Part shown: positions 4,078 to 64,000 of the stretch, piece after piece
Layout of the letters: every line of letters begins with the position of its first letter
How positions within the stretch are numbered: the first letter of the stretch is position 1
DNA from: Amoebidium appalachense
Lineage: Eukaryota > Protista > Ichthyosporea
NCBI GenBank assembly: GCA_963693365.1
Contig: CAVNZM010000008.1
Span: 10,672,123-10,736,122, forward strand
Reading direction: 5' to 3'
Length of the DNA stretch: 64,000 nucleotides
Notes under the pieces: generated by a model
Seen by the model: only the letters and a program-made list of their open reading frames with translations
Database searches by the model: none
What the model was told of the DNA's origin: nothing
Position numbers and translations under genes: made by a program

Positions 4078-4470
4078 TTTACTTCCATGCAACCGGGCAT
4101 GGTTGCTCTGTGTCGTGCATCTGTAAGCACATACGCGTTTTTCGCTGCACTGCATTAGTTTGCACACACATCTTCACCGTTCTGCTCACCTTGCTTGCAT
4201 AAGCAACCCTGCTCGTCTTTGATCAAGACGGGTTGACCCACCCAAGTTCAGTTGATGCTGCTGTCTGAGTTGGAGCGTCGTATATACGCGGGCTAAGGGG
4301 TCGAAACTCAGACGCAATTGATGACTTGGGCCCTCCCTGAGGATGGGCTCTGCTTATGACGCATACTGTGCGCATGGCTGATGTTGCACACTTGAATGTT
4401 TGCCTTTGCATGTGTCCTGCACCATGCTTCTCATCGTGTATGTGTACTTCGTACTGTGTTCCGCATTCAA
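4078..4470 (+). repeat. Dispersed structured-RNA repeat, subtype A, copy 1 (core 4198-4358)
   Basis: Near-identical to 5473-5805 and 43750-44130; core runs CATAAGCA...CTCGTCTTTGATCAAGACGGG...GGTCGAAACTCAGAC...CCTGAGGATGGG...TGCTTATG. Confidence 0.9.
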
Positions 4471-5472
4471 ACCCCCCCCCACACACACCACCACCACCAC
4501 CACCCTCACCCCCTTCCTCCACGCACACAAATACGCACAAACACACACGCACACACACGCACACACACACACACACACACGGAGATAGACACACATGCGT
4601 GCAAGGACACACACACACACAACACACGTATCCCACCCTCCCCCCTGTTTCTCGGGCTGTACACGGGAACGGTAACGGAGCTACATGCATTTTCACCCTC
4701 CACATGACACGCACGCGCACACACGCACACACACACGCACACACACACGCACATACACGATGACAAACAATGACACATGCACACGAATGGGCACCTGCTC
4801 ATCTACATCCTGGCACACACACGCACATGCCACAACAGCCCACACCGAACTAAATTCATTTCTTTACCTTTCTCTCATTCTCTTTATTTTTCTCATTTTT
4901 AGGCTTTGCTGCACTTTCTTTGTTTCTTTGTGGCTTCTGATCCTTGTAAACAACCCCCCTACGCACACGCACGCGTGAACACCACCCGCACATCCACCAC
5001 CCTCTACCCCCCCCCCCCCCCCCCCCTCCCTCCCTCCCACCCTCTCTCCCTCTCTCTCTCTCCCTCTCCCTCTCCCTCCCTCCATCCCTCCCTCCCTCTC
5101 TCTCTCTTTCTCTTTCGCTCGCTCGCTCGTTCTCTGTCTCCCTCTCTCTCCCCCCCTCTCTCCCTCTCCCCCTCCCTCCCCCTCTCTCCCCCCTCCCCCT
5201 CCCCTTCCCCCCTCTCTCCCCCCGCTCCCTTTCCCAAACAATTCCCCCGCTGTTCTTCTTTCTCAGCCGGCTAGGTTTTTGGGTTGCCTGGTAAGTTTTG
5301 AAATGGGGCTCTCGTCTCTGATCTGTCCACCACAGGGTTTCTTTCTTTTTTTTTTTTTTTTTTTTTTTTTATATTATAATTCTTCTCCCCCCCCCCCCCC
5401 CCCTTTCCCCCTCCCTCCCTCCCCTCCCTTCACCCTTCGCCCTTCCCCGGCCTACTCCCCCCCCCCCCCCCC

Positions 5473-5805
5473 TTCGCTGCACTGCATTAGTTTGCACACA
5501 CATCTGCACCGTTTTGCTCACCTTGCTTGCATAAGCAACCCTGCTCGTCTTTGATCAAGACGGGTTGACCCGCCCAAGTTCAGTTGATGCTGCTGTCTGA
5601 GTTGGAGCGTCGTATATACGCGGGCTAAGGGGTCGAAACTCAGACTCAATTGATGACTTGGGTCCTCCCTGAGGATGGGCTCTGCTTATGACGCATACTG
5701 TGCACATGGCTGATGTTGCATACTTGATTGTTTGCCTTTGCATGTGTCCTGCACCATGCTTCTCGTCGTGTATGCGTACTTCGTACCGTGTTCCGCATTC
5801 AAACC
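5473..5805 (+). repeat. Dispersed structured-RNA repeat, subtype A, copy 2 (core 5530-5690)
   Basis: Direct alignment by eye to 4140-4470. Confidence 0.9.
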
Positions 5806-5886
5806 CCCCCTCCCCCCCCCCCCCTTCCCCTCCTACCTTCTTTCCCCCCCCCCCCCCCCCCCCCCCTGGCCAAACCCTGTATACAC

Positions 5887-6678: not shown

Positions 6679-6864
6679 GTGAAACAGTATCTGAGTTGGG
6701 TTTCGTTAACGAGGGGAATAGGTCGAAACTCGGGTACTGTGGATGACGTGGGCCCCCCCTGAGGATGGGCTCTGCTTATTATGCATACTCTTTATGTATG
6801 GCTTGCATTCTGCATCGTGTTATCCGTTTGTTCTTGTGTACTTCGTACTTTTTGACGCATTCAA

Positions 6865-6866
<2 letters not shown>
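6679..6866 (+). repeat. Structured-RNA repeat, subtype B, 5'-truncated copy
   Basis: Matches the 3' part of 9129-9385 from AGTGAAACAGTATCTGAG onward. Confidence 0.85.
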
Positions 6867-6912
<46 letters not shown>

Positions 6913-7675: not shown

Positions 7676-7930
7676 ACTGCCCGTGCCTGCATAAGCAACC
7701 CTGCTCGTCTCTGATCAAGACGGGTGACCTACCCATGTTCAAGTGAAACAGTATCTGAGTTGGGTTTCGTTAACGAGGGGAATAGGTCGAAACTCGGGTA
7801 CTGTGGATGACGTGGGCCCCCCCTAAGGATGGGCTCTGCTTATTATGCATACTCTTTATGTATGGCTTGCATTCTGCATCGTGTTATCCGTTTGTTCTTG
7901 TGTACTTCGTACTTTTTGATGCATTCAACA
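7676..7930 (+). repeat. Structured-RNA repeat, subtype B (core 7690-7843; CTGAGGA mutated to CTAAGGA)
   Basis: Near-identical to 9129-9385. Confidence 0.9.
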
Positions 7931-7943
7931 CCCCCCCCCCCCC

Positions 7944-8584: not shown

Positions 8585-9385
8585 TGTGCGGGGTTGCACA
8601 TACCGGTGTCTACTTTTCTTCTTACTGTTTTTCTCTCCACACACTTCATCTGTCCACTTCTGCATACCCCCTTTCATAGCTATAGACACACTTCACACAT
8701 TGCGTTACGCGCACGCATGCACACACCGCTCTGTTGGCGACAGCTCCCTTGGAACCCATGCGGCATGTTACCCGCCGGCGTAACATAACTCGGACTATCG
8801 GTTTGGCTTTTTTCAAGCCCAAAGCAATGGGTGATACCATATTTCCGGCTGACGTCCGGGGGCATAGCTTTCCGTTCGAAGACGATAAAGTTCCGCCCTA
8901 GTAAGCGTGTTACTACCCTGCGGCGTGGGTCAAATCTCATATTTTCCCCTCTGATTACGAATTCTGTGGCCTTCGGGACTTAATTCTTTTCAGCTGGTGT
9001 AGTATGTTAGCCAGGGAAGTATCGACTTAGGTATCGACGGGGGAGCTTCCTAGAAGCCCCGTCTCCTGAGTTCCTATCTATATTTTTCTTGCTTCTGCTT
9101 ACTGCTGCAACTTTAACCCCCGGCCTTTCCCACTGCCCTTGCCTGCATAAGCAACCCTGCTCGTCTCTGATCAAGACGGGTGACCTACTCATGTTCAAGT
9201 GAAACAGTATCTGAGTTGGGTTTCGTTAACGAGGGGAATAGGTCGAAACTCGGGTACTGTGGATGACGTGGGCCCCCCCTGAGGATGGGCTCTGCTTATT
9301 ATGCATACTCTTTATGTATGGCTTGCATTCTGCATCGTGTTATCCGTTTGTTCTTGTGTACTTCGTACTTTTTGACGCATTCAAA
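7944..9385 (+). mobile_element. Probable 3' remnant of a retroelement (Penelope-like?): repeat C, a short reading-frame end at 8743-8901, a 3' UTR and a subtype B core at 9146-9299
   Basis: 8743-8901 translates as APLEPMRHVTRRRNITRTIGLAFFKPKAMGDTIFPADVRGHSFPFEDDKVPP*. IGLAFFKPKAMGDTIF loosely resembles the post-thumb IAYxRPKNLGDLL motif of PLE RTs. A hammerhead-like core follows. Confidence 0.35.
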
Positions 9386-10101
9386 CCCCCCCCCCCCCCC
9401 CCCCCCCCTCTCCCCATCCCTCCCTCCCTCCCACCCATGTGTCCTTGTGAAGCTTCATGCACGTACTATTACCCCCCTCCCCCTCCCCCCTCCTCTTGAG
9501 GATGGGCTTTACTTTTGGTGTGGGTGCTGTGTCTCCTTTATTGCACATGGGCATTAATTTGCTCGTTGTGAGTTTGTACTTCATTCTGTCCTCCGGGTTG
9601 CGCTTCAACACGTACACATACACGATGGCTTCTCAGTTCTGCATTACAGTTTGGTTTTGACCCTCTCAATACACTCATACCCCTCTTCCCCCCTCCCCTC
9701 CCGCCCCCACCTCGGGCGCTTCTGCCCGCTCCCCTCACTCTCTCTCCCCTTTCACCTCTCTCACTCGTTCAATTGCAACACTCACATGCTCATGCACCCC
9801 GTTCACACTCGTGCTTACACTTCTTACACTCGCACTCGTGCGCATTCAAAGACACAGGCGCGCGCTTGCACACACCTTCATGCACATGCCGACCACCTGT
9901 TGCCTTATGACCACCCCCCCACACAAGGTATGTGTTCGTTCACTGCAAATAGATGGCTTTTGGTGATGGGTGCTAAGCATCGTCACGGGAAGGGGGACCC
10001 CCCCCCCCCCTCCCCCCCCCCCCCCCACTACACACACAACGGTTTCTAGGCTCACCTTATGAAATAGTTGCTTTTCCGTTTCTGACCCGTTGTGCCCACA
10101 G

Positions 10102-14170: not shown

Positions 14171-19937
<5,767 letters not shown>

Positions 19938-28321: not shown

Positions 28322-29114
28322 GTTGATGTTTTGTACCAAGAGAACTCTATTATGAGCGTTAGCGTTGACTCACTTGAAGATGCTACCTTCTCAAGCACAA
28401 AATAATTTGAAGAAATACGTGACACAGCTATATTGTGTATGCTTATTCTCTACCTGTTACAACAGCTTTTCACTTCAGGTAAACCTACAAAGAAAGACGT
28501 TTCAAGCTTCACCGTGACCGCGCTTTTTTTTTGTACCGGCGACGCGACCGGACTTTTCCTGTCCAATTAAATTTTTGGACATCAAATCCTGTTGAATCCA
28601 CGTGATTGGTTGTATAAATCCTGGGCGGGAGCCGCATGCAGGCACTGTGATGTGCAAATGTACTGTTCATGAAATTGAACATTGAAAATCAAAAGACACC
28701 AGCAACATAGAAAAATATTACATAGCATACCTCTAATATATTTTTTAATATGTTATCTATACTTGGTGGTGCTCTTAGTTAGCATCAGGTGTCCAGACAG
28801 AAAGGCATTGTTTTTACCGCGCTCCCGGTGTGATACCTGTGTAATTACCCCAGCCTCTTAGTAGTTACGCAATTGTTTGGTCACCACCGGCAAATGGCTC
28901 CTGATAAAAGCACTTTTGACGTATGTACAATGTAGACCACTCGGACTCAGCCAAAACGTTACGCTGCCGTAGGCTACATGGCCGGCCGGTGTGCGCCGCA
29001 ATCCACCGGCGCCCGCCAATATGGCATATACCTTGTGGTGACGACCTCGGCATTTTTTTATATGGCTATGCCAGAAGCAAAAATCATTCCTGAAAAAAAT
29101 AACTGGGGTTTTAC

Positions 29115-32060
29115 ATGTACACAATAAACCCAGCTCAGACACCTTATGATTCCATGGCCGGAAAATCTGGCAGCCGTTCGCCTCACTACGTCACGCAGGC
29201 AATGACGTCATCTTTGCCGCGATCAGATGGAGTATGTCCAAAGTCACACTTTGCGGTTCCCTCAAATATCCCATGCCCACAACACCGACTGGGGAGTGGC
29301 CTTTTGGCCATCAACCATGTCAAAACGGGGGTTTACGCTGTTTACTCGAGGCAAAGAGAACCAGTCTCAGGTATGGGGGGGGGGGGTTTTGCTCGGAATA
29401 TCCCCTCAGCGGTATATCATGATCACGTACATAGATGTCGGGTGGTGACTATATTCTCTCTCCCTCCTAACCTCTCTAGGTCATCTGACCACTCTCCTAT
29501 CCTTTTCCTACCTAAGATCTCCCTTGATCTGCTCCCCCCTCCCCCTCCCACCTTTCGCCTCCGTCTATCCCAGCTTAAGTCACAGTGGGGTAGAGTTGAT
29601 GTATGTGTATGCTATGCTACGAAACACCCTATATATATGCGCCTATTAGAATCTGCACAAGCCAGGCCAGATTCACATCTCGTACTAGATACATGCACTA
29701 ACTTTATTGTTGATGATTTGATAGATCTCGGTGATTATGCTGGCGGTGGTAGGAAGGAATATCCCGATGCTCTCTTGTTACCAAACACCACTCCCGCTAG
29801 ACTAGGTGAACCCCTGTCTCAAAAGGAAAGCTTGCGCCGGCTTGCTAGTATGAATCGATTTGGCCCCCCTGCTCGTATTATTGGTGATACCACTGGAGAC
29901 CCCCTCATAGACTCTGATAAGTATTTCTCGGAACTGTTTAAAGATAGGACCCCCGCTCAGAAACCTATTGTGTGGCCTGTAGACCCATCTATCCCCATAG
30001 AATCGATCCTCCCCTTTTTCAGTCCCGATGCCATATGGTCTGTGATATCTAGTTATAGCTCTAGTAAGTCTTGTGGACCTGATGGACTCCCTGCTGGGTT
30101 TCTTAAAATCCTTGTTCCCTCCTACCCACAAAAGGAAAGTGATCGTGCTATTAAACCTGATCTTACTATCATGTTAAGCTCTCTCTTTTCTTGGTGTGTT
30201 AAATGTGGACATGTCCCGTCATCTTGGTTAGATACCTTAGTGATCCCCATAGTTAAGAAGGACTCTGAGGGCCCCATATCATCCTTTCGCCCCATTACAC
30301 TAACCCAGGTTGTTCGTAGATTCTTTGAAGCTTGCTTACTTAGGTTATTTGCACATCACCCTAGGTTTCAATCTATTCTTCACATACACCCATGCCAATC
30401 CGCTTTTCGTAAAAACAATTCATGTTATGTTCAAATAATGGCACTGCACGATTCTATGCAAGTTGGTGCACAATATGTTGGCTTTATTGATTGGAAAACT
30501 GCTTACGATTCTGTCTCCCCTGGTCTCCTATGGGAAAAGCTTGCTGCACGGGGTGTACCACACTGCATTGGTGTTCTGTTAGAAGCACTCTTGTCTCAAA
30601 CCTATGGTAGAGCTGTGGTTAATGGGCATCTTTCATATGGTTTTGCTCGTACTAGAGGTCTCTTGCAGGGTTCATTGCTTAGCCCCTTTTTGTTTAACCT
30701 ATTTATAGATGATTTGGCTGTCAAGATTTACGCCGAAAACGATGACCCTATTAATAACTTTCCGCCTGCACTTCTCTATGCTGATGATCTGTCCCTCCTT
30801 GCCCGTACCCCTAGACGCCTGCAAAGATTATTCGATGTAGTGTCAGAGTGGTGCAAGGCAAACCTTATGATCCTTAACATAGACAAATGTGGTGTTCTTG
30901 TACCTGATATAGCTAACAATTTACACACATTTACATTATCATCTAAACCTGTACCTATAGTTCCAGAATACAAATATCTTGGTGTTCCGGTTGATTCTGT
31001 TGGTGTTATGTTTCCCCATATGGTCGAAAAGAGGGTAGAGTTGGCTCGTAAGCGGTTAGCTTTCTTCTCGGCTAATATTTTTAAAGACACCCCCCTCCAT
31101 CCTTCTATTAGACTTACATTTATTCGCACTTTTGTCTTCCCGGCATGTGAATATGGTTTACCCCTTCTCGCCGCTTGGATCAAGAAAGAGAGAACTAGAG
31201 CGCTTAAACCCTTGGCAAATTTCCTTGAAGCAGAAGTTGCCTCCTTTCTATCTAACAACTGTTGTAAACCTGGGCCTGTAACGCTCTCGATATATGGTCT
31301 GGTCCCAATAGCTGCTAGAGTATCCTATCTCGCGCTGAAATTCAATAAGCACATAAGCCGCTTAAAGAAGTATTTGCCCTCCCACCCTCTCTTCTCTATC
31401 CGACCTGTCCCCTCCTCACCTCTCCCCTCTTTCCTCCCCTCTCTCTCCCCTTCTCCCCTGGGCACAAATACAAATAAACCCCGCAATAGTGTGTGTGTGA
31501 CTTTGGACTGCCACCTACTTATTAAACATGTACACAATCACAAGATAATCACGCAATATAACAAATGGAAAAAGATACCACACGACACTAGACCCGATGA
31601 AAGCATACACCTTGAAAAACTAAGCCTTATGTCTCGTTTTATATATACTGACCGCCTCAACCATATTGCCAAATATGGCACTCGCAAGTGTATAACACCT
31701 AAATACATATTACCTTCCTGTAGAACTGGTCTTTCTCTAGCTGATGGTATTATTGATCAATTACCACGCTTTTACTGTACACGTGCTATACAGTGGAGAT
31801 CTAATAAGTATAAGGTGGCATCATTTGCATGCCCAAACAACACACACACACACCAGTTTAACCGGTCATGTATCGCCAAATGTAGTTTGATAGACCACAT
31901 AATACCGCAACACACACACGTCACATTCACAACAGACACCCAGAAAGATAGCCTACCTGTAAATTACAACATCCTTGATTTTATACTAAACACGCGTAAC
32001 TACGACCTGTTTATTAGATGTATTGATTGGCTTGAGAAACACATCACTACAAAATTATAG
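29115..32060 (+). CDS. Non-LTR reverse transcriptase ORF (981 aa as open frame; LINE-derived part starts ~29455; internal ATG at 29637)
   Basis: RT motifs KSCGPDGLP, FRPITL, QSAFR, FIDWKTAYDSV, GLLQGSLLSPFLFNLFIDDL, LLYADD, YKYLGV; C-terminal Cys/His cluster CPNNTHTHQFNRSCIAKC. Confidence 0.93.
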   Translation: MYTINPAQTPYDSMAGKSGSRSPHYVTQAMTSSLPRSDGVCPKSHFAVPSNIPCPQHRLGSGLLAINHVKTGVYAVYSRQREPVSGMGGGGFARNIPSAVYHDHVHRCRVVTIFSLPPNLSRSSDHSPILFLPKISLDLLPPPPPTFRLRLSQLKSQWGRVDVCVCYATKHPIYMRLLESAQARPDSHLVLDTCTNFIVDDLIDLGDYAGGGRKEYPDALLLPNTTPARLGEPLSQKESLRRLASMNRFGPPARIIGDTTGDPLIDSDKYFSELFKDRTPAQKPIVWPVDPSIPIESILPFFSPDAIWSVISSYSSSKSCGPDGLPAGFLKILVPSYPQKESDRAIKPDLTIMLSSLFSWCVKCGHVPSSWLDTLVIPIVKKDSEGPISSFRPITLTQVVRRFFEACLLRLFAHHPRFQSILHIHPCQSAFRKNNSCYVQIMALHDSMQVGAQYVGFIDWKTAYDSVSPGLLWEKLAARGVPHCIGVLLEALLSQTYGRAVVNGHLSYGFARTRGLLQGSLLSPFLFNLFIDDLAVKIYAENDDPINNFPPALLYADDLSLLARTPRRLQRLFDVVSEWCKANLMILNIDKCGVLVPDIANNLHTFTLSSKPVPIVPEYKYLGVPVDSVGVMFPHMVEKRVELARKRLAFFSANIFKDTPLHPSIRLTFIRTFVFPACEYGLPLLAAWIKKERTRALKPLANFLEAEVASFLSNNCCKPGPVTLSIYGLVPIAARVSYLALKFNKHISRLKKYLPSHPLFSIRPVPSSPLPSFLPSLSPSPLGTNTNKPRNSVCVTLDCHLLIKHVHNHKIITQYNKWKKIPHDTRPDESIHLEKLSLMSRFIYTDRLNHIAKYGTRKCITPKYILPSCRTGLSLADGIIDQLPRFYCTRAIQWRSNKYKVASFACPNNTHTHQFNRSCIAKCSLIDHIIPQHTHVTFTTDTQKDSLPVNYNILDFILNTRNYDLFIRCIDWLEKHITTKL
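29328..29454 (+). repeat. Left arm of 127/128-bp inverted repeat (MITE/foldback-like TIR)
   Basis: Reverse complement of 32275-32402 (2 mismatches near the outer end, G-run 12 vs 13). Confidence 0.92.
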
Positions 32061-32274: not shown

Positions 32275-32402
32275 ATATAGTCACCACCCGACATCTATGT
32301 ACGTGATCATGATATACCGCTGAGGGGATATTCCGAGCAAAACCCCCCCCCCCCCATACCTGAGACTGGTTCTCTTTGCCTCGAGTAAACACCCTAAACC
32401 CC
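32275..32402 (-). repeat. Right arm of 127/128-bp inverted repeat
   Basis: Reverse complement of 29328-29454. Confidence 0.92.
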
Positions 32403-42592: not shown

Positions 42593-46668
<4,076 letters not shown>

Positions 46669-48124: not shown

Positions 48125-52814
<4,690 letters not shown>

Positions 52815-53589
52815 CTGCAACTCCCCACCACAGTTCAGTCTCTTCATCTCTGTGTGGGTCACAAGAACCCCTAAGGGCCTAAACTCCCTCCCCGCCCCCC
52901 CCCGGGGGGGGGGGGGGGGACCACCATTCCGCTAAAACAAAAGCATGACTTATTCCTGCAGCATGCTGAAACAAAAAAAACCATGTGCAACGGAAAGGCA
53001 TTCTTGACGCTCTTCTGAGCCCATGATGCCTCAGCAAAAACTAACAACAGAAATCTCTCTTGCCTTTGCACAAACTAAGCTCCCAGCAGATGACGTGGCA
53101 TTCTGGCCTCACTCGAAAACTCAAATGTCAGCAGAAAGCCTCAACTTAGAGTAAACTGAGGCTCAATTGCTTTCAAAATACCTCCATAAGCGGACAAGAA
53201 CCCTGACAAATGCAAAGCTAAAATTTGCCTCAAATAAAACATGCATATACAAGAGTCCAACCAACCCGCCTACCTTTGGTTCTCGTAAACCTCCACCCAG
53301 CTGGCCACGGGCAGCCCTTCCATTTATACCAGACAACTGGACACAGCCAATCAGACTCGGGCTTTCGAAGTTCACGTGTTTCTTTTCTCTTTCCTTTAAT
53401 CTTTCTTCCCTAAATGGCTATGTCTAATAGCTGTGTGCACATAACGAAAGGCCTTTCTTCAAGTTTCAAGTTTTTGATCAATCCTTGTGCGCCAAGGGAA
53501 GGGTTTTATATAGGCTCTTGGCTGATGAGCCGAGATAAGCGATGACCTCAGCAAATCAACAACCAATCAGATTCCGAAAAACTGAAAAG

Positions 53590-53973
53590 TTGGGATATTC
53601 GGGTTGGTTGTAAGGTTTTCCGGGTCGGGCCGAAGGCCCTAACGGGCCGCAGGCCCGCCTATTGGGCCGCCAGGCCCTAGGCCTCGGGCCCGGGGCCCCG
53701 GGGACCGGGGGGCCCGACCCGGCCCGCGAGCCACCCCCCGGCCCGGCCCGGCCCCCCGGGGCCCGCGGGGGGGTTAGCAGCCGCTGCTAACCCCCCCGCG
53801 GGCCCCGGGGGGCCGGGCCGGGCCGGGGGTGGCTCGCGGGCCGGGTCGGGCCCCCCGGTCCCCGGGGCCCCGGGCCCCAGGCCTAGGGCCTGGCGGCCCA
53901 ATAGGCGGGCCTGCGGCCCGTTAGGGCCTTCGGCCCGACCCGGAAAACCTTACAACCAACCCGAATATCCCAA
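53590..53973. repeat. 384-bp GC-rich near-perfect palindrome with 1-nt centre (53782)
   Basis: TTGGGATATTCGGGTTGG...GGTTAGCAGC-C-GCTGCTAACC...CCAACCCGAATATCCCAA; one mismatch and one run-length difference seen. Confidence 0.95.
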
Positions 53974-54685
53974 TATTGCTTCATTCTGATTGGTTGTCAC
54001 ACCACGGGGTTTCCCGATTGTTCTTCGAATGACATTTGCTATCACTATCAGACAGTTCTCCAATATCAGAACAGAAAACGGTCTCTACCCAGATGGCCAG
54101 ATGGCCAGGTCAAATTCAGTGTGTGGAAAAAGGTGGATAAAACGGGATAAAACGGTGAGCAAAATGATCTGGCCATCTGGCCATGTGGCCATGGAATCTC
54201 TATATCTAAAAATAGCTGCCACTGCGCCGGGGCGTGGTTCCGGGAGGCAGGGGAGGCAGGGGGGCAGGGGGGCAGGGGAGCAGGGGAGCACTCACTGGCA
54301 CTGCGCCGGGGCGTGGTTCCGGGAGGCAGGGGAGGCACACGTGCAGGGGAGGCAGGGGGGTCGGGGGAGGCACACGTGCACAGGAGGCTGGGGAGAGTGG
54401 GGGAACCATGGTTGTGTGATACTATCTATCCCCCATGTATGGCTGAGTTAAGACCATTTGTTCATGTAGCACGATCTTCTAGCATGCACGTGTTGGAATG
54501 CCACCACTGGGGGGCCTGGTTCCGGCAGGCAGGGGGGCAGGGGGGCACACGTGTGTGGGTGTGCATGTGGCAGGGGAGCAGGGGGGCAGGGGAGCAGGGG
54601 AGCAGGGGGGCTGGCATGCCACTCACGGGGAGGATAGTGTATGTTGGCACGTGTGGGTGTGTGGGTGATAAAGGCAGAAGCCACA

Positions 54686-55005
54686 ACACGTGTGGTGTCT
54701 AAACAGCCTATAGGCATGCTCCGTGTGCAGGCACCAATTTCTACCCTCTTCTGGTTGGTGCCAAGAGGCAGCGCCCTACACGTGTGGTGTCTAAACAGCC
54801 TATAGGCATGCTCCGTGTGCAGGCACCAATTTCTACCCTCTTCTGGTTGGTGCCAAGAGGCAGCGCCCTACACGTGTGGTGTCTAAACAGCCTATAGGCA
54901 TGCTCCGTGTGCAGGCACCAATTTGTTGTGCCTTCCTTTTTTGGTTAGATCTATACCCGGCCAATGGTTAGCAGCCACGGGTTTGTTTTCATCAAGCTTA
55001 GACGT
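54686..55005 (+). repeat. Left inverted-repeat arm: 92-bp unit x ~2.6 plus an 83-bp tail
   Basis: Units start at 54686, 54778 and 54870; 54706-55005 is the reverse complement of 59734-60036. Confidence 0.92.
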
Positions 55006-55115
55006 GATACTTTGCCAACCATCAAGGCCGTTTGAGTGACAATGACCGTTGATTGGAGAGATCTATCCCATTGAGCCTTGGCACCATTGCTGGTAAGCTG
55101 CTTTGTACCGTGGCA

Positions 55116-55124
55116 TATAAAAGC
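55116..55124 (+). promoter_or_regulatory. TATA box (TATAAAAGC) of ORF 55219
   Basis: ~100 bp upstream of the ATG; same 9-mer precedes two other ORFs of the element. Confidence 0.6.
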
Positions 55125-55218
55125 AGCACACACGGTCACATTCACTCATTTCAACACTGACACTCAATAGTAAAAGGCGACACACAACAAACTTGTTTTT
55201 CAAACACTCACACGAAAC

Positions 55219-56439
55219 ATGGATTCTTGGAAAGAGGAGCTTCAACAGCTGCAGAAGCGCTTTGATTTTCTGTACACGGACCATTCGTCTCGCGTAACGG
55301 CCCTGCACACCGACGTCACCAGCCTCCGCACCGACCTCACCAGCCTCCGCAGTCAAGTGACCAATGAGAATGCTGCGCGTACCCCCCGACCCCCCCAACC
55401 CCAGCCCTCTGATGTAGAGGCACGACTGAGGGCAGCCGAAGAGCAGATCAAGACCCTGCAGGCCGAGCTTGCCAGCCTGCAACGGGCTGCAGCACCCCGT
55501 CGGGATGGCCAGGTGGCCTATGAAAACTACATTTTCAGTGGCCCTCGCAAGACTACCATTGCCGCCAACACCACCACTGTGACTGCTGACCCCACCCCTG
55601 TCGCAAAGACCGCCCCTGTGACTGCCCCCACCCCTGCCGCAAAGACCACCCCTGTGACTGCCCCCACCCCTGCCGCAAAGACCACCCCTGTGACTGCCCC
55701 CACCCCTGTCGCAAAGACCGCCCCTGTGACTGCCCCCACCCCTGCCGCCAAGACCACTCCTGTGACTGCCCCCACCCCTGCCGCCAAGACCACTCCTGCC
55801 AAGACCACCCCTACCACCAAGACCACTCCTGCCAAGACCACCCCTACCACCAAGACCACTCCTGCCAAGACCACCCCTACCACCAAGACCACTCCTGCCA
55901 AGACCACCCCTGCCGCTAAGCCCAGGCCCAAGCACACCAAAACACCTGAGACTTCGTTGCATGACCATACGATGGACCTCGATGCACAGCTAACTAGTGT
56001 GAGGGGGGAGCTCCAGAATGCTCGAGAGCGTGTCAAAGAGGCAAAGGCGGCTGAAGATGAAATGGCGGAGGGCCTGGCCATTGCTGCTGTGTGTGCAGCC
56101 CAAAACACCATAAAAAGCATCCGAAGGAAGATTCTGCGACGGGAGAAGAACTTGAAGGCATACACAGGTGGTAATGAGTCTGTCTCTTCACCTGCCTCAC
56201 CCGCCAAACGCGTCCATGATCAATGCGATTGGGACTCAGATGAAGCATTCAACCCCAAGCGGCTCAAACGACGGGCAAATCAGGTACTCGATGATATGAC
56301 AGATGACGAATCTGCGTCTGATCGTGAGTCGGTCGTGTATGACCGCAAAACTGAACCCAAACATAAACAAACTGAAGAAATTCCCCTCATTGATCTTGAC
56401 CAGGAAGAGTTTGACCAGTATGAGCATGAGATGTACTGA
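55219..56439 (+). CDS. Hypothetical 406-aa protein: coiled coil, Thr/Pro/Ala/Lys repeat stalk, coiled coil, acidic C-terminus
   Basis: Intronless ATG ORF with upstream TATA and AT-rich 3' flank; 33-bp and 30-bp in-frame repeats. Confidence 0.85.
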   Translation: MDSWKEELQQLQKRFDFLYTDHSSRVTALHTDVTSLRTDLTSLRSQVTNENAARTPRPPQPQPSDVEARLRAAEEQIKTLQAELASLQRAAAPRRDGQVAYENYIFSGPRKTTIAANTTTVTADPTPVAKTAPVTAPTPAAKTTPVTAPTPAAKTTPVTAPTPVAKTAPVTAPTPAAKTTPVTAPTPAAKTTPAKTTPTTKTTPAKTTPTTKTTPAKTTPTTKTTPAKTTPAAKPRPKHTKTPETSLHDHTMDLDAQLTSVRGELQNARERVKEAKAAEDEMAEGLAIAAVCAAQNTIKSIRRKILRREKNLKAYTGGNESVSSPASPAKRVHDQCDWDSDEAFNPKRLKRRANQVLDDMTDDESASDRESVVYDRKTEPKHKQTEEIPLIDLDQEEFDQYEHEMY

Positions 56440-56842
56440 TTTGATTGGTCGACTAAGTGGCATTCTCTTTTGATTTGTATTTGAATTGGTCGGTCTTGAT
56501 TTATTTGTTTCTTTTCTCTTTTAGTTTGTATTTGAATATACTCGGTCCAAGTTGATTTGTTCTTTGTAATCTGACTAGACTATCATGTACGTACGTACTC
56601 TTTTTCTATACAATCACTTGTGTTCATATCAAAGGATTCTGTGTACGTGGACCACGGAAACATACACCATTTTTTGCAGTGCTTCATGCTATAAAATAAC
56701 CATGAGAGACACAAACAAATACACTAAGTGTGTACACGTCTACCCATAGGCCCAAGTGTTGACATGTCTGCCCACAGTTCCCTAAGGCTTAAAGCACACA
56801 TCTGCCTGTATGCCATAAACTTTACTTTCACCACAAGACACC

Positions 56843-57592
56843 CACCTAAGTACACTCTGCACCACCCTAAGTACACTGTGGTGCACAGCCCCACCCTAAG
56901 TACACGTCTGCACCACCCTAAGTACACTGTGGTGCACAGCCCCACCCTAAGTACACGTCTGCACCACCCTAAGTACACTGTGGTGCACAGCCCCACCCTA
57001 AGTACACGTCTGCACCACCCTAAGTACACTCTGCACAGCCCCACCCTAAGTACACGTCTGCACCACCCTAAGTACACGTCTGCACCACCCTAAGTACACG
57101 TCTGCACCACCCTAAGTACACGTCTGCACCACCCTAAGTACACTCTGCACAGCCCCACCCTAAGTACACGTCTGCACCACCCTAAGTACACTCTGCACAG
57201 CCCCACCCTAAGTACACTCTGCACCACCCTAAGTACACGTCTGCACCACCCTAAGTACACCTCTGCACAGCCCCACCCTAAGTACACTCTGCACCACCCT
57301 AAGTACACTCTGCACCACCCTAAGTACCTCTACACCATCCTAAGTACACGTCTGCACAGCCCCACCCTTTAAGTACACTCTGCACCACCCTAAGTACACT
57401 CTGCACCACCCTAAGTACCTCTACACCATCCTAAGTACACGTCTGCACAGCCCCACCCTTTAAGTACACGTCTGCACAGCCCCACCCTTTAAGTACACGT
57501 CTGCACCATCCTAAGTACACGTCTGCACAGCCCCACCCTTTAAGTACACGTCTGCACAGCCCCACCCTAAGTACACTCAATGTTAAGTACAC
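56843..57592. repeat. Tandem array of ~32 units (21-29 bp) with core (CCC)TAAGTACAC
   Basis: Counted by eye; linkers drawn from a few variants (TCTGCACCA, GTCTGCACCA, TCTGCACAGCCCCA, TGTGGTGCACAGCCCCA). Confidence 0.95.
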
Positions 57593-57655
57593 CTGCACAC
57601 AAGCACTAGAATAGCCTGAGGCTACTCTCTAATAGCGGCCCCTTTTTTCACCGTG

Positions 57656-58360
57656 TCAAGGCCAGTTGATATCTCCGTCTGAAGACTCGGAAGACGCCCC
57701 AGAGCTGCTGGCTTCACTGGCTCGTGCCCTTTTCTGCTGTCCCCGTGTCAAGGTCTTGGACTCGGAAGACGAGTGCTCCTCAGAAGACGAGTACTCCTCA
57801 GGTCCCCATAGCAAGGTCTTGAACCAAGGAGGCACTTCCTCCTGTACCTCCGACCCAGAGCTTTTGACTTCCTCTCGTGTCCTCTTCTGCTGTCTTCGTG
57901 GTTTCTCCCGTGTCTTGGACCCCTGTGTGAAGGTCTTCCAGTTGAACCAAGGAGGCACTGGAGAATGGTGCTCCTCCTCCGACCCAGAGCTTCTGACTTC
58001 CTCTCGTGTCCTCTTCTGCTGTCTTCGTGGTTTCTCCCGTGTCTTGGACCCCTGTGTGATGTGCAAACGTGAGCGCTGCAGGGGCTGGGGGGCCAAGTCC
58101 ACGGGATAGGAGCTGCCATGCTCGCCAGCACGAAGTGCAGGTGCCGCTGCCAGGACAGGGGGTGCCACGGTCAGCGCTGGGGGTGCCACGGTTGCTGCTG
58201 TAGTGGTGCGCGAAGCCATGCGGGTGTGCCTAGCAAGGGCGCGCGCGAAACGGGCCTGGGTGTCCCGCAGGGCCTTTGCATCCTCCTCCAAAGTCTTGAG
58301 TCTTGTCTCTATTTTTTCAGCGCGCCTTCCTAGATCTTTGATGTCATCTTTAGAACTCAT
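57656..58360 (-). CDS. Hypothetical 234-aa protein: N-terminal coiled coil, duplicated basic ~40-aa module, Ser/acidic tail
   Basis: ATG at 58360 (MSSKDDIKDL); TATAAAAGC at 58452-58444; repeat TQGSKTREKPRRQQKRTREEV x2. Confidence 0.8.
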   Translation of the reverse strand: MSSKDDIKDLGRRAEKIETRLKTLEEDAKALRDTQARFARALARHTRMASRTTTAATVAPPALTVAPPVLAAAPALRAGEHGSSYPVDLAPQPLQRSRLHITQGSKTREKPRRQQKRTREEVRSSGSEEEHHSPVPPWFNWKTFTQGSKTREKPRRQQKRTREEVKSSGSEVQEEVPPWFKTLLWGPEEYSSSEEHSSSESKTLTRGQQKRARASEASSSGASSESSDGDINWP

Positions 58361-58443
58361 TTTCGGGACAGTTGGATGTACGTTGTGTGCCAAGGGAGAA
58401 GCTAGCTAACATGGAAAAGGTGTGTGGATTGAAGAGAGTATGG

Positions 58444-58660
58444 GCTTTTATATGTATATGCCGTGCCCGGCTTTGGCATCAGATGCTTTATTGCATTAGA
58501 TTGGTTGGATATACCCCAGCCGCGACGCTTGATTGGATCTAGAGATCGCGTGAACATCTGATTGGCTAATTGTCATTTGGGCATCTTGGTGTATCCGATA
58601 AGTTGGGGCTCAACCAAATCTGCTGACTGATTGATGAATTCTGATTGGATCAACAAGAGC
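58444..58660 (-). promoter_or_regulatory. TATA box plus cluster of CCAAT boxes upstream of ORF 58360
   Basis: GCTTTTATA at 58444-58452; several GATTGG between 58499 and 58650. Confidence 0.55.
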
Positions 58661-59320
58661 ATGTTTTGACTTGAGAATTGTCATTTTGACAGATTGGATT
58701 GTAATCCGATCTTTGCAACTTGGCCGTCAGTGTTTGAACACAATGTATTTTGATGTAGCAACTCCTAAAAAAACACGAATATGCTTCCCAACAATTACGA
58801 GCATTATTCTGTCTATCAGGGATACAAAAATTGGTCAGGAAAAGTACACAATCACATGGTGCTGACAGATTGCGCACGATGTCAACTGATAGCGAATCGG
58901 TGCACTGCCTGCTGGGAACCACATGTCACTTTTTGAGCAGCACTTGGGAAACTCGCGCTCACGTGGATCCAATACTTATACACCAATCAGAAGTGTGCGC
59001 ACAAAAAGGGGTCCGCGCTGGATACAAATGGCTTGGTGTGTGTGTGTGTGTGTGTTTTATTTTGCATTGTGTAAGGGGCGCTTTTTTTTGTTCACACTGC
59101 TTTACTTCGTGTAAATAATCAGTGGCGAGTTTTTTTAGTTCACGGTGTGTTTGCGCATCATAGGATTTTGCTTTATTTTGCACTGTGTAAGAGGGACGGT
59201 TTTTTTGGGTCACACTTTTGCTTCGTAAAAATAAGAGGGACGTTTTTTTTTGTTCACACTGCTTTTCTTCGTGGATAGAAAAACTAAACACCTCCTGCCC
59301 AACCGGCTGCAAACGACACA

Positions 59321-59665
59321 ATGGATGAAACAGATACACAGCGCCAAGATGCACACACCAAGCAGCTGCAAGAGACCAACAAGATGCTGAAGGAGGCCAA
59401 CGAGGGGCTGCACGGGCTGATCCAGCAGCTGAGGGAGTTGAACAACGACATGGACAAGGACAACGACGCGCTGCGCACAATTAACAAGAACCAGCGGGAG
59501 GTGATCAAGGGCCTGCAAGAGGAGCGCAACAAGGTGTGCGAAGAGAACAAGAATTTGGTGGTGGAGAACCAAGAGCTGCAGCTGGAAAACGACAAGCTGA
59601 AGAAGCAAAAGGACTTTCTACGGGCCTGTCTCATACGGCTGGGCCAGTCCGCTAAGACTCCATGA
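59321..59665 (+). CDS. Hypothetical 114-aa coiled-coil (leucine-zipper-like) protein
   Basis: ATG ORF with strong GC3 codon bias and heptad Leu/Asn periodicity. Confidence 0.85.
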   Translation: MDETDTQRQDAHTKQLQETNKMLKEANEGLHGLIQQLRELNNDMDKDNDALRTINKNQREVIKGLQEERNKVCEENKNLVVENQELQLENDKLKKQKDFLRACLIRLGQSAKTP

Positions 59666-59733
59666 AACGGATTGATACAATCATGAGGGATAACACTTGC
59701 GAGTGATTTCATTCTGTTACTTAGTATGTATTA

Positions 59734-60036
59734 ACGTCTAAGCTTGATGAAAACAAACCCGTGGCTGCTAACCATTGGCCGGGTATAGATCTAACCAAAA
59801 AAGGAAGGCACAACAAATTAGTGCCCTGGACACGGAGCATGCCTATAGGCTGTTTAGACACCACACGTGTAGAGCACTGCCTCTTGGCACCAACCAGAAG
59901 AGGGTAGAAATCAGTGCCCTGCACACAGAGCATGCCTATAGGCTGTTTAGACACCACACGTGTAGGGCACTGCCTCTTGGCACCAACCAGAAGAGGGTAG
60001 AAATCAGTGCCCTGCACACGGGGCATGCCTATAGGC
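59734..60036 (-). repeat. Right inverted-repeat arm: 83-bp tail plus 93-bp unit x ~2.4
   Basis: GCCTATAGGC at 59841, 59934 and 60027 (period 93); reverse complement of 54706-55005. Confidence 0.92.
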
Positions 60037-60575
60037 AGTGATGGGGTGAGTAGGATGAGTAGCTTGAGTACCTTACTCATCTGGTCTCCCCCCGGGTGTT
60101 CCAATTTCCTTTTGGATTGAGATTTAGGTATACCCGTAGCCCACAGTAGATGAGTACGTACTCATCCTACTCATCCTACTCACTATATGACAATTGCATA
60201 TTTTTATACCCAAAAAGGAAACCTTTACCATATTTGGGTGAGTAACATCTAGTGGGGGAAACTTGTCTGTGTTACTCAGAATCAGTACCTTGAGTAAGAT
60301 AATTATTGTTACTCAGTGCAACAAGTTTCAGGTGACGTGTATCTGCTTATACTTATATATATATATATCCTGAGTGTAGGGCTGGCTCCCTAATGGACAC
60401 TCCAAACCCACATATTTGTAACAATATTATCGACCATAATCCCAACGCACACCAGACATGTGCTCCGATGACTCCCTGGCTGTGGGCCTCCTTATATTCA
60501 CATGCTGCGCCATCCAGGGCACAGTTGCACCTTCACCGGCAGTCGCACACACACACGCACTGCGTGATACCTGCA

Positions 60576-61094
60576 TTATTCTCTACACTGCCGCCTATTT
60601 TTCTGTACTGATTCATATAACTGCAGCGACAGAATGTCGCACCCCATGTCATGCCAAAGGAAGTCCTTCAAAAAGTCGATTCGCAGAAGGGTTGTTCGTT
60701 TTCTCTTTGCCTCCATGGGGACAGCTCGTCCCTCGCTCATGCCCTCCTCCTCCGTCGGATCCCTCGGTGGCAGCAGCGACAGCGTGGTGTCCCAGCGCTC
60801 CCAGGTCAGCCGAAACGACTTGCCCCAATCCAGGTCGATGGTCACCGCATCCCCGGCCCCCTCCAGTGGACACGTCGAAAACACCAGGTGGTTGAGTCCA
60901 GTCCTGTTCGACGTTTCCACCGACTGCAGCGGCAGCATCGTGTCCGACAGCATCGTGTCGCCCTTGCCGAGTCTTGCGTGGAGCTGTGGCGGCCGGCTTG
61001 CCACCCTCCCGGCGCCGTTCGAGTCGAACGTCATGTTGGATACAAGCAGCGACAGCCGATTGACAAATAGCTTCAGGTCCTGCTCAAAAGCCAT
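60576..61094 (-). CDS. Hypothetical 172-aa protein (MAFEQDLKLF...)
   Basis: ATG at 61094; TATAAAAGC at 61153-61145; protein-like composition. Confidence 0.7.
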   Translation of the reverse strand: MAFEQDLKLFVNRLSLLVSNMTFDSNGAGRVASRPPQLHARLGKGDTMLSDTMLPLQSVETSNRTGLNHLVFSTCPLEGAGDAVTIDLDWGKSFRLTWERWDTTLSLLPPRDPTEEEGMSEGRAVPMEAKRKRTTLLRIDFLKDFLWHDMGCDILSLQLYESVQKNRRQCRE

Positions 61095-61470
61095 GGTCGG
61101 TTCTGGTGCAGATTCAGACTGGCAGCTCCCCGTGTCAGACACACGCTTTTATACCCTCCAGAGTCCCCGCCTGCGTCGGCGCACACTCATTCGCAAGGTG
61201 CCAGTTCTCGAGGCGCTGCATGACCACGAGTGCGCGCTTGCGTGTTTCGGTGTGTGTGTACGTGGGCCCGAATCGGAGTGTGAGGTGCTGAGCGTGCGCT
61301 GTTGCACAAGCATGTGGACCGCAGGTGTGCGACCGGGAGACATTGTGTTGGCGTGCGAGATCAAGCGCGCAGAGCCCGGGTGGCGCAAGGTGTCCCTCGA
61401 GCTCGAGGAGGGTGCGTGGACCAGCAACCTGTGCGCGGCAGGGTGTAAGAGGAGGAAATGGTTTCACTAG
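61093..61470 (+). CDS. Hypothetical 125-aa Cys-rich protein with PDZ-like AGVRPGDIVLA motif
   Basis: In-frame ATG at 61093 within track ORF 60634-61470; GC3-rich codons in the 3' part; start uncertain. Confidence 0.45.
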   Translation: MVGSGADSDWQLPVSDTRFYTLQSPRLRRRTLIRKVPVLEALHDHECALACFGVCVRGPESECEVLSVRCCTSMWTAGVRPGDIVLACEIKRAEPGWRKVSLELEEGAWTSNLCAAGCKRRKWFH

Positions 61471-61640
61471 GAGAGGTCGCCCACAATTTTTGGGTGAACG
61501 TCATGTCAAAACGAAGAGGTCGGTCCAAAAAGAGGGGTCACAGACGTGCAAGGAAGTACGTGTATGCAGACGAGTTCATGCCAAAATACCGGAGACTGGT
61601 GCTCCGACAGAGTGTGCGAGTAAAGCGCCAAGCACATTGA
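61458..61640 (+). CDS. Small basic 60-aa protein (KRRGRSKKRGHRRARK)
   Basis: ATG ORF followed by AT-rich terminator-like sequence. Confidence 0.5.
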   Translation: MVSLGEVAHNFWVNVMSKRRGRSKKRGHRRARKYVYADEFMPKYRRLVLRQSVRVKRQAH

Positions 61641-61704
61641 TATTTTTATTTCTGTTGTTGGATTTACATTGTATATTCACCCCGAAACTGTTTAAGATTT
61701 TTTG

Positions 61705-62076
61705 CTATAAGGCATGCCCCACGTTGCCCGCGTTGCTCCAGGGGGTCCCCTCGTTCCACTCATCAAGGTCCGCACCCACCCCCTCGAACTCCTGGTTGCG
61801 GTTGCGCCCGTAGGCTCTGTCAAAGACACCCTCGCGCAGCGGCAGCCCTGCTGCCTCCACCACGTGGCCGACCTCTTTGAAAAAATAGTCAAGCCAGCGC
61901 TCACCCCAATCTTCAAGTGCTGTGCTCAGGTCCTCGGTGGTTGCGCCGCCCGGGGCCATGGTGGTGAACCACCATGTTCCTTCCGGATCCTCACCCGAGC
62001 ACACCCTGTCCATGTACCTCGTCAGTGCGTCCTCCGTCTTGGCGCGCCCTACGTCCCAGCGGTTTTTAGGTTCCAT
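61705..62076 (-). CDS. Hypothetical ~123-aa acidic, Trp-rich protein (MEPKNRWDVG...)
   Basis: Intronless ORF with GC3 bias; AATAAA downstream on the minus strand (~61650). Confidence 0.7.
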   Translation of the reverse strand: MEPKNRWDVGRAKTEDALTRYMDRVCSGEDPEGTWWFTTMAPGGATTEDLSTALEDWGERWLDYFFKEVGHVVEAAGLPLREGVFDRAYGRNRNQEFEGVGADLDEWNEGTPWSNAGNVGHAL

Positions 62077-62093
62077 TAGCACTGCGATGCATA

Positions 62094-62411
62094 ATGTCTG
62101 TGTGTGCTCCCCGAGTTGCTGGGGAGGGGGCGCTCCAAACTATCTCTTCGGAAGGTATGACTTCTCCGAACATTGCAAACCTGAGATTTGACAACCCGAG
62201 TAACTCGAGAGTGCGCAGGGATGACATTGCCGCCGACCCGCACGAGTACCACCTGACCATCGACAACAACACGCGCTTCATGCTCTACATGGGCACTTCA
62301 TTGGACGACCATGATGCACAGCTCAAGAGCGCTTCGATGTGGAGGGGCATAGCGCTTGCATGCATGGTGCTGCTCGTGCTGCTTGCTGGCGTGCTGGCGT
62401 ACAGGTGGTAG
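62094..62411 (+). CDS. Hypothetical small membrane protein with C-terminal TM helix
   Basis: C-terminal GIALACMVLLVLLAGVLAY; start may be the ATG at 62157. Confidence 0.65.
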   Translation: MSVCAPRVAGEGALQTISSEGMTSPNIANLRFDNPSNSRVRRDDIAADPHEYHLTIDNNTRFMLYMGTSLDDHDAQLKSASMWRGIALACMVLLVLLAGVLAYRW

Positions 62412-62475
62412 GGGGGGGGGGTGGGGGGGGGGGTTAAGTTTGTAATTTTTATTCCTGGGCCGCACCAGGCGGACT

Positions 62476-63054
62476 TCACACGAGTTGGTTGCCCGGTTGA
62501 TCTTGTTGTTTGTGTTTATGCACCTCCTTTCGATGTCGCCACAGCCCACTACGCCATGAGAAGGCCTTTGAGCACCCTTCCTCAGCGCATATGTAGGAGC
62601 GCTGACCTGTATGGATGCGGTTATGAAATTTAAGCGCGTTGGAGTTCTTGAGAATCGCCCCGCATCCAGTGACACCACATACCACCTGTTGTCTTGAATC
62701 GTGCACCTTTAAGTGCCTAAGAAGCGCACCCCTGTATGAAAAGCGAGCGCCACACTCATCGTGGTTGCATGCATATGGGCGCTCACCCGTGTGCCTTCGT
62801 GTGTGTCGTAAAAGCCGTCCAGATTGTGGAGACCTGTAGTTGCACCCTTCGTAACTGCACTCGTATTTCTTTATTCCGGTGTGTATGGTCATATGTGCAT
62901 CCAGACCAACTTGTTGCGTACACCTTACCGTACAACCAGGCCATGTACATGGATATGGTTTTTCACCGGTGTGAAATTTTGCATGACGTTGTAGGTTCTG
63001 CTTTGTTGCAAAAGTTTTATTACATGTTGTACATCTATGATCTGTCATATTCAT
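62476..63054 (-). CDS. Intronless C2H2 zinc-finger protein (6 fingers, 192 aa)
   Basis: CxxC/CxxxxC...HxxxH fingers with canonical linkers HTGEKPY and HTGERPY. Confidence 0.93.
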   Translation of the reverse strand: MNMTDHRCTTCNKTFATKQNLQRHAKFHTGEKPYPCTWPGCTVRCTQQVGLDAHMTIHTGIKKYECSYEGCNYRSPQSGRLLRHTRRHTGERPYACNHDECGARFSYRGALLRHLKVHDSRQQVVCGVTGCGAILKNSNALKFHNRIHTGQRSYICAEEGCSKAFSWRSGLWRHRKEVHKHKQQDQPGNQLV

Positions 63055-63281
63055 TTATTGCACCAAAAAAAAGAGAGATTGGCTACTGGGTAGTCAGGTA
63101 GTTGGGTTGTAGGTGCTTTTACACTGGAAATATTTTTGTCCTTTTTATTTTTTTCGAAAAGTAAGTTACCACCTCCCAACCTGACTACCACTAAGTAAAC
63201 CAACAGCCCAAGCAAGTAATTTATAATAAAAACCCATTTTGGTGTGTGTTTGGGTTGCTACTTGTTGTAAGATCCCCGTGG

Positions 63282-63998
63282 CTATGCAAGTGAACCGAGA
63301 AGGTCTTGCTCCATAGCCTGACAAACATCTTTCGACAAACCAATCTGCTCAAACGACAAAACATAACAGTACCGTGCCGCTGAATTGACCTTCGTTCCCA
63401 CTGGTTTCCCCAAAATGGCACGAAGCGCACTACCAAACAGCTTTTGGCTTGGTTTCTGACTGCGCCCTGTCGCGTTCCGCTCGTGCCACAAACGAAAGTA
63501 GTCGAACAGGTCGCTGTTGGTGAAGCGTTGGCCATCGACTGGTCGGGGCCACTCCTCGCATCCGTTGTCGCCCGTCACAAGGTCGCGCAGAAACTGCAGT
63601 TCATCTGGCCGCCCGAGATCTGTCAACCGTGAACGAAGCTCGGTTGTTGGGGGGGTTGGCATCCGTTGGGGGACATCCACTTCAGCCATCAGTTCGTCCA
63701 AAATCGCCTGGAGAACAGATGGATTGGAGTGTCGTTCCTTGAATTCGGCGAAGTATGCAAACTGCCCCTTTCTATCTGCTGAAGACTCAAAACAGGCCCA
63801 TCGTCGGTCTCCCTCCTCTAGGTTTAGCGGGTGCGACTCGTTGCTGAGAATCACATAGCGCTCACAACTCTCCACGGTAATGATGTCACAGCCCTTCTTT
63901 TCCATGAGGCCCGTGGTTTCCGTAACACGGGCCTTCATTTGGTTGATGATGTCCACATTACCATGCCAAAACACCTCGTCACACACAATAAGCAGCCG
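63282..63998 (-). CDS. C-terminal part of an SF3 primase-helicase (DUF5906 / NrS-1 / D5-like); 5' end beyond the window
   Basis: Walker B RLLIVCDE, K..VTE....EKKG, motif C VILSNE, arginine finger GDRRW, C-terminal winged-helix-like segment (SDLFDYFRLW...SQKLFGSALR). Confidence 0.85.
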   Translation of the reverse strand, partial: RLLIVCDEVFWHGNVDIINQMKARVTETTGLMEKKGCDIITVESCERYVILSNESHPLNLEEGDRRWACFESSADRKGQFAYFAEFKERHSNPSVLQAILDELMAEVDVPQRMPTPPTTELRSRLTDLGRPDELQFLRDLVTGDNGCEEWPRPVDGQRFTNSDLFDYFRLWHERNATGRSQKPSQKLFGSALRAILGKPVGTKVNSAARYCYVLSFEQIGLSKDVCQAMEQDLLGSLA

Positions 63999-64000
63999 GT

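Follow-up and report, generated by a model that had tools for sequence, protein, structure and literature searches.

In Halocafeteria seosinensis, endogenous virophages (subtypes 1, 2, 5 and 6) and the Polinton-like virus (PLV) subtype 4 carry palindromes within their terminal inverted repeats (TIRs), beside target-site duplications (TSDs). According to that study, the terminal palindromes go preferentially with replication by means other than pPolB, and hairpin priming was proposed for them in 2026 as a model still untested (10.64898/2026.07.28.741278). I consider here a stretch of 64,000 nucleotides (the window) from contig CAVNZM010000008.1 of the ichthyosporean Amoebidium appalachense. The region from 53590 to the window end is probably (I would say at about 55%) the terminal part of a virus-like element of PLV or virophage grade that is integrated in multiple copies, its palindrome being the unfolded form of a terminal hairpin that would prime replication. 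Like the Halocafeteria elements, it would be integrated with a palindrome at its extremity, and it has a replication gene other than pPolB. The Halocafeteria elements, as that source presents them, have a 52-nt palindrome (in the example shown) in TIRs, TSDs, an RVE integrase and capsid genes (10.64898/2026.07.28.741278), whereas here the palindrome measures 384 nt, repeats and orphan genes occupy the next 9 kb or so, and no TSD, integrase or capsid gene is in view.

Other described systems share part of this arrangement. DUF5906 is given as the commonest partner domain of mavirus-related elements in protists and fungi, some of which are without capsid genes (PMC13215967). The present element resembles group 1 of the mavirus-related pPolB elements in its DUF5906 superfamily 3 (SF3) helicase and its protist genome (the group occupies protist and fungal genomes), and some members of that group have no structural genes; the group is defined by pPolB and TIRs, and the far end of the present element lies outside the window. 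The terms "hairpin" and "palindrom" are absent from the main text of that paper (PMC13215967), and palindromic repeats are mentioned in a figure legend of another (10.64898/2026.10.13.758929). Transpovirons are described as carrying a fusion of pPolB with an SF1 helicase (PMC13215967), as against the SF3/DUF5906 helicase seen here, and a second helicase could follow downstream.

In Amoebidium itself, adintoviruses, endogenised giant viruses (GEVEs) and Plavaka giant repeats resemble the present element in being poor in introns, densely packed with genes and inserted in several copies into a protist genome that is otherwise rich in introns. The markers stated for those insertions (VLTF3, Dam, the capsid proteins MCP/mCP, PolB, A32 ATPase, D5 primase, Plavaka transposase and tyrosine recombinase) were not found in the window (PMC11244446). 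Mriyaviruses and the Zoravirus (VC102) PLVs are mid-sized double-stranded DNA viruses with an HUH endonuclease in the replication module, for which rolling-circle replication has been proposed; they are defined by a capsid module and by Mriya48/VLTF genes (10.64898/2026.06.19.733378), the Mriyaviricetes being expected to have an NCLDV-like capsid module and VLTF2/3 beside the HUH endonuclease. None of these was seen in the window, nor was an HUH gene recognised among its open reading frames (ORFs), an HUH-fold domain appearing only in three relatives of the helicase.

There is also a likeness to the rolling-hairpin replicons of parvoviruses and to CRESS Rep, papillomavirus E1 and SV40 large T proteins, in that a GC-rich terminal palindrome stands together with an SF3 helicase, three relatives of which have an N-terminal Rep/origin-binding fold. 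Parvovirus genomes measure about 4-6 kb, whereas the present element extends over at least 10.4 kb, its helicase is of the NrS-1/DUF5906 type, and the nearest relative of that helicase is without a Rep domain. Since capsid, ATPase, integrase and the far end would lie beyond the window, membership of any family is not to be claimed, as the first-pass annotation (made from the sequence alone) had said of the element's class.

The arms of the palindrome, 53590-53781 (192 nt) and 53783-53973 (191 nt), differ by one mismatch and one single-base insertion or deletion in a run of C, and the inner 299 nt are 85% GC. The predicted DNA fold, at -309.8 kcal/mol, was equalled by none of 100 shuffled sequences (z -42.5); by this calculation the terminal palindrome is capable of forming a hairpin, as at parvovirus-type ends. 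A palindrome that stops after about 190 bp on the side of the host and runs on into unique sequence on the other has the form expected of a hairpin end after a nick near its base and copying of the stem, as in the terminal resolution of parvoviruses. Inspection by eye of its edges revealed no flanking direct repeat, such as the TSD that surrounds the inverted repeats of foldback elements and miniature inverted-repeat transposable elements, and this argues against a separate cut-and-paste foldback element. DNA patterns made from the palindrome and from the 92-nt repeat unit described below found no match in viral contigs. A resemblance to the geminivirus origin nonamer at 53971, on the inner edge of the palindrome, was set aside: it matches at 7 of 9 positions, and such matches occur 1.9 times per kb, so that it carries almost no weight.

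The palindrome coincides with a break in composition. Homopolymers and dinucleotide repeats (G/C runs, GT/CT) make up 12.2% of positions 1-53589 and 0.4% of 53590-64000, which bears out the near loss of microsatellites and homopolymers noticed in the first-pass annotation, and nowhere else does the window run free of repeats for as long as over 52920-59035 and 59056-62410. The left flank, intron-rich eukaryotic DNA dense in these repeats, appears host-like, judging by the repeats themselves and by exons of host type (Sybindin, RCC1, RING) that Pfam recognises further left. The exon-like ORFs next to the element (50829-51368 and 51839-52375) gave no Pfam match. A search with the RCC1 exon brought two weak matches, unnamed or bacterial, and trinucleotide CpG depletion was uninformative as to the host.

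The helicase is seen only as its C-terminal half (238 codons), its N-terminus lying beyond the window. A HMMER search of 1.84 billion protein representatives gave 1633 matches at E <= 0.001, the best being P0003 (503 aa, 44% identity, E 1.8e-45); eight of the nine best are 410-503 aa long. The ten relatives looked up are Logan or ENA proteins without names, so that the clade has no named member among them. A maximum-likelihood tree of 28 rows (the window fragment and 27 chosen relatives) puts the helicase in a clade of 14 rows (support 100/99) and, within it, in a group of seven (96/90) that comprises, besides the window protein, three standalone proteins and three with N-terminal extensions; its sister is the standalone P0003 (92/86). 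Fusions with AEP_C962R, Prim-Pol, PriCT_2 and DUF3854 fall outside the 14-row clade, and no Pfam primase domain was found in any of the 14 clade proteins scanned. The predicted model of a clade member, P0007, finds its best match in the C-terminal region of NrS-1 (E 2.8e-18). The protein was first described as an SF3 primase-helicase: the SF3 helicase is confirmed, but because no primase domain was found in the clade the label of primase is unsupported. The phylogeny that had been called for thus yields a helicase of viral type in an unnamed clade, with the primase-fused groups lying apart. Such an SF3 helicase fits the replication module (pPolB or an SF1/SF3 helicase) expected of PLVs and virophages, while the C-terminal half groups away (100/99) from the AEP-fused D5-like primase-helicases expected of giant viruses.

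Searches of contigs brought little that is related. A word-seeded protein search with the helicase gave no match among 2434 candidates. No related locus was found in viral contigs with the helicase, with the ORF at 60576, with protein P0153 or with alignments A1 and A3, and A1 found none in metagenome contigs or prokaryote genomes either. The helicase hit only four distant loci in metagenome contigs (30-31% identity), and phage records reached 22-28% identity among the best 10 of 246 rows. One small gene-dense metagenome contig (L003:1-10240) bears an 845-aa helicase that is not a close relative (31% over 71 aa), together with ORFs that by eye resemble a recombinase (364 aa) and a methyltransferase.

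Public sequencing runs suggest that the region is far from unique. Between 0.56 and 0.70 of the words of 58000-64000 occur in 19 of 22 listed runs, under three organism labels, and contigs from three DNA-like runs (633, 118 and 1755 records) cover all 30 bins of 58-64 kb, with many alternative letters. The one RNA-like run examined covers 7 of the 30 bins, and there is no RNA run among the 22 listed; neither is informative on expression. In run X2, whose contigs total 3 Mb (as against 167 Mb for X1 and 205 Mb for X10), single contigs reach a depth of 67-127 across 58-62.4 kb, which would place the element far above single copy if X2 is shallow genomic DNA. The ratios of single-contig depth between runs stay similar from site to site, X1/X2 lying at 16-25 (five sites) and X10/X1 at 3.5-4.5 (four sites), which is expected of inherited copies and less so of a free virus whose abundance fluctuates. 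The proportions of variants are steady between the runs of 2011, 2020 and 2024. The copies are not all alike: a joint 59731>60225, present in all three DNA-like runs, bypasses the right arm of the inverted repeat, and another, 62668>61412, rearranges the C2H2 region. High depth, with many variants in similar proportions across runs, suggests a mosaic family that is inherited stably in multiple copies, and speaks against single-copy host genes, one of the cases named as refuting the first description of the locus.

Depth also varies along the element. In X1 the outer contigs reach a depth of 1804 and in X10 one of 7783, which exceeds the sum over the helicase variants (539+297 and 1971+1337, respectively) by a factor of about 2.2-2.4, and 62922-63255 has about 6 times lower depth than the outer part. 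This step hints at either a long terminal repeat or deleted copies. At 58086, 58329, 59360, 59482, 61348 and other positions, all contig depth in the runs examined carries a letter different from that of the window; the letters found only there may be private changes of the window copy, a strain difference or assembly errors.

The features of the element are listed in Table 1. The order given in the first-pass annotation, from palindrome through G-rich repeats, inverted repeats, motif cluster, orphan ORFs and C2H2 gene to helicase, is accurate, and each feature could be located.

Table 1. Features at the right-hand end of the window, in order of position.
Feature	Position	Strand	Basis or remark
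Repeat-free flank, 44% GC, with two CCAATCAG motifs	52920..53589	.	either a host promoter or a decayed outer portion of the element
Near-perfect palindrome, 384 bp, centre 53782; predicted unfolded terminal hairpin	53590..53973	.	arm comparison and DNA folding
G-rich subterminal short direct repeats (families D11, D18)	about 54216..54628	+	
Inverted-repeat pair, left arm, tandem 92-nt units	54703-55005 (feature start listed as 54672)	+	
Orphan ORF, 406 aa, coiled-coil-like ends, Thr/Pro/Ala/Lys repeat	55219..56439	+	TATAAAAG at 55116
Tandem array, 32 units, mostly 21-29 nt, sharing TAAGTAC	56841..57578	+	additional to the features first described
Orphan ORF, 234 aa, internal 84-nt duplication	57656..58360	-	TATAAAAG at 58445
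Intergenic motif cluster	58490..59280	.	CCAAT-type motifs at about 58490-58990, then three T-rich direct repeats at 59053-59280
Orphan ORF, 114 aa, coiled-coil-like, GC3 0.78	59321..59665	+	
Inverted-repeat pair, right arm, 93-nt units	59734..60039	-	skipped in a common family variant
Orphan ORF, 172 aa	60576..61094	-	TATAAAAG at 61146
Orphan ORF, 123 aa, first-position G 0.47, GC3 0.75	61705..62076	-	
Orphan ORF, 105 aa, hydrophobic C-terminus (by eye)	62094..62411	+	
C2H2 zinc-finger gene, intron-free, 6 fingers, 4 HTG linkers	62476..63054	-	Pfam
DUF5906 / NrS-1-type SF3 helicase, C-terminal 238 aa, frame leaves the window	63282..63998	-	Pfam, HMMER

Eleven ORFs of the element were scanned with Pfam and ten with PHROGs. 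Two pass the Pfam cut-off, the C2H2 gene (E 9.5e-24) and the DUF5906 gene (E 2e-6), and the other nine gave either no Pfam match or one below the cut-off. Neither collection identified a structural gene in the 10.4 kb, in which Pfam also recognised no marker of nucleocytoplasmic large DNA viruses (NCLDVs: MCP, PolB, VLTF3, RNA polymerase), and no pPolB, RVE integrase or cysteine protease, the set expected of Maverick/Polinton elements (adintoviruses). Nine window proteins were absent, by exact match, from the protein collection searched, the ORF at 60576 had no usable match in the ESM Atlas, and Rfam found nothing in 56500-64000. This last ORF is overlapped antisense by one on the plus strand (60634-61470), and either could be the coding one; that at 57656-58360 has in-frame deletions of 3 and 6 nt in other copies found in public contigs. 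The motif TATAAAAG precedes three ORFs and occurs three times in the 10.4 kb as against twice in the other 53.6 kb; together with the CCAAT motifs it suggests transcription by host RNA polymerase II.

The two arms of the 303-bp inverted repeat are 95% identical and both consist of tandem units of 92-93 nt. The cassette they were said to bound is real as an inverted pair, but it is not a fixed unit, given the joint that skips the right arm. Smaller inverted repeats lie between genes, at 60046-60071 / 60158-60183, just beyond the right arm, and at 63089-63111 / 63167-63189, in the gap separating the helicase gene from the C2H2 gene; they may serve as terminators, as sites of recombination or as borders of modules.

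Three members of the helicase clade (P0007, P0155 and P0159; 668-700 aa) are predicted to join an N-terminal domain of CRESS-Rep (HUH) fold to the NrS-1-type SF3 helicase. In the ESM Atlas this domain matches clusters of Viral_Rep, Rep_OBD, Gemini_AL1 and PPV_E1_DBD at 0.90-0.94, these families being annotated on 10-39% of cluster members (98% for the E1 cluster). The domain model (pLDDT 84) aligns best to the endonuclease domains of CRESS Reps (Z 9.8, root-mean-square deviation 3.2, 105 residues), and SV40 large T and papillomavirus E1 follow closely; of 15 matches that reach Z 8, Reps and origin-binding domains make up 12. In a search of a viral structure library the named rows are again CRESS Reps, while a sequence search against the PDB gave chance matches only. 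Measured by eye against the assigned motifs of Rep proteins (motif II, and motif III with its catalytic Tyr), two of the three fused proteins have the HIH of motif II, and Trp appears to stand at the position expected for the Tyr, so that the domain may bind origins instead of nicking. P0003, the nearest relative of the window helicase, has no such domain, and the fusion is seen in relatives only. A literature search, with supplementary material outside its range, turned up no description of a fusion of Rep fold and NrS-1 helicase or of a hairpin-ended element of this kind. It is a speculative and rather doubtful proposal that the element belongs to a new family of large integrating elements with hairpin ends and with terminal repeats some 9 kb long, and that such elements would use a chimeric initiator like that of the three sister proteins, in which a CRESS-Rep-fold domain is joined to a helicase of the phage NrS-1 type, acting by a parvovirus-like rolling hairpin or by papillomavirus-like origin binding.

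If the region is the end of a hairpin-primed element of PLV or virophage grade, the terminus of its free linear form would fold back on itself as a stem about 190 bp long, the 3' end of which would prime synthesis, so that neither a primase nor a protein primer would be needed; this fits a helicase lineage without a primase. A nick near the base of the stem, followed by copying through the hairpin, would give a duplex end with the full palindrome, as seen joined to host DNA. The helicase would unwind for a host polymerase or one separately encoded, host RNA polymerase II would read the genes from TATA/CCAAT promoters, and the C2H2 protein would likely bind the element's repeats or promoters. 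The outer 9 kb or so may form a long inverted repeat at the termini, of which each element would have two copies.

Several observations weigh against this account. The window has, by Pfam, no capsid, ATPase, polymerase or integrase gene, and "virus" is thus an inferred label; nor was any close relative with its genomic context found in the viral, metagenome and prokaryote scans. Among the 22 variants classed (of 159), all seven in 57656-58360, both in 59321-59665 and four of five in 62094-62411 are non-synonymous, so the orphan ORFs are without sign of purifying selection, and two of the four classed in the helicase are synonymous. Contig depth does not equal copy number and is unnormalised to host single-copy DNA, and the step in depth could equally be explained by deleted copies or by inner variants less than 90% alike. 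The left edge is fuzzy, and the joint between host and element, like the palindrome, is known from assembled sequence alone. An unlikely but credible alternative that takes up the first of these points is a giant repeat or an integrated linear plasmid that copies itself but has no capsid; it would be primed by the same hairpin and would spread within the genome without making particles. The mosaic variants and their joints resemble turnover within a genome, capsid-less members are described in the DUF5906-rich mavirus-related group (PMC13215967), and non-viral giant repeats that are poor in introns are reported from Amoebidium (PMC11244446). However, structural genes may follow just beyond the window, and since the mechanism at the end would be identical the data do not separate a capsid-less replicon from the virus-like element.

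The fuzziness of the edge bears on a different and improbable account, by which the palindrome is an internal cruciform origin, a joint where two copies meet head to head or a foldback element in its own right, and the true boundary lies further left. From 52920 onward the DNA is already free of repeats, a 13-nt motif recurs in mirror image immediately beyond both arms, and CCAATCAG occurs at 53347 and 53563 and again within the element, so that the edge may sit up to 670 nt left of 53590; the composition break claimed at that position stands and its sharpness does not. But 52930-53589 has no blastn match to the remainder of the element from 53001 onward, and CCAAT boxes are ordinary promoter motifs. 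That the region is instead one end of a giant virus (Nucleocytoviricota) that has become endogenised is slightly less probable still. This locus, with its order of hairpin, tandem arrays and ORFs and its possible terminal repeat of about 9 kb, recalls the ends of poxviruses and asfarviruses, whose long inverted terminal repeats contain the first two and orphan genes. Among the structural neighbours of a clade member in the viral structure library, an iridovirus helicase of 474 aa ranks third. The hairpins of poxviruses, however, are AT-rich and incompletely paired, whereas the GC-rich core here is fully paired; the helicase stands apart from the AEP_C962R fusions, no NCLDV marker lies in the window, and the TATA/CCAAT motifs suit host transcription. 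Least probable is an artefact in which abundant extrachromosomal hairpin-ended linear DNA was joined to a host contig during assembly. The very high depth and the difficulty of assembling palindromes speak for such a misjoin, but variant proportions would hardly be so steady over the years in a free virus, and a fold-back read artefact would mirror all neighbouring sequence, not 191 nt only. Taken as a virus-like mobile element with unusual terminal architecture, as first described, the locus is supported by its palindrome, repeats, intron-free ORFs and helicase.

The flank has repeats and a mobile element of its own. Two dispersed families, each 91-97% identical and possibly small transposons, lie at 6740-6887, 7804-7943, 9260-9406 and 15464-15609 (about 145 nt) and at 4044-4477, 5473-5830 and 43720-44156 (350-430 nt). 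An unbroken frame of 985 codons (29103-32060, plus strand) with an RVT_1 domain (E 5e-28), in a repeat-free block where a 128-nt inverted repeat links 29328-29454 and 32275-32402, is likely a young retroelement.

Terminal palindromes are already known as short ones, the 52-nt example among them; the present one, at 384 bp, is unusually long and clean. How linear PLVs and virophages copy their ends without a protein-primed polymerase is an open question. The chimeric initiator, if true, would link the Reps of single-stranded DNA viruses to double-stranded DNA elements of Polinton grade. A 384-bp palindrome together with a helicase from a clade in which no primase was detected, in a multi-copy family present in public runs of several years, would make the hairpin-priming model directly testable.

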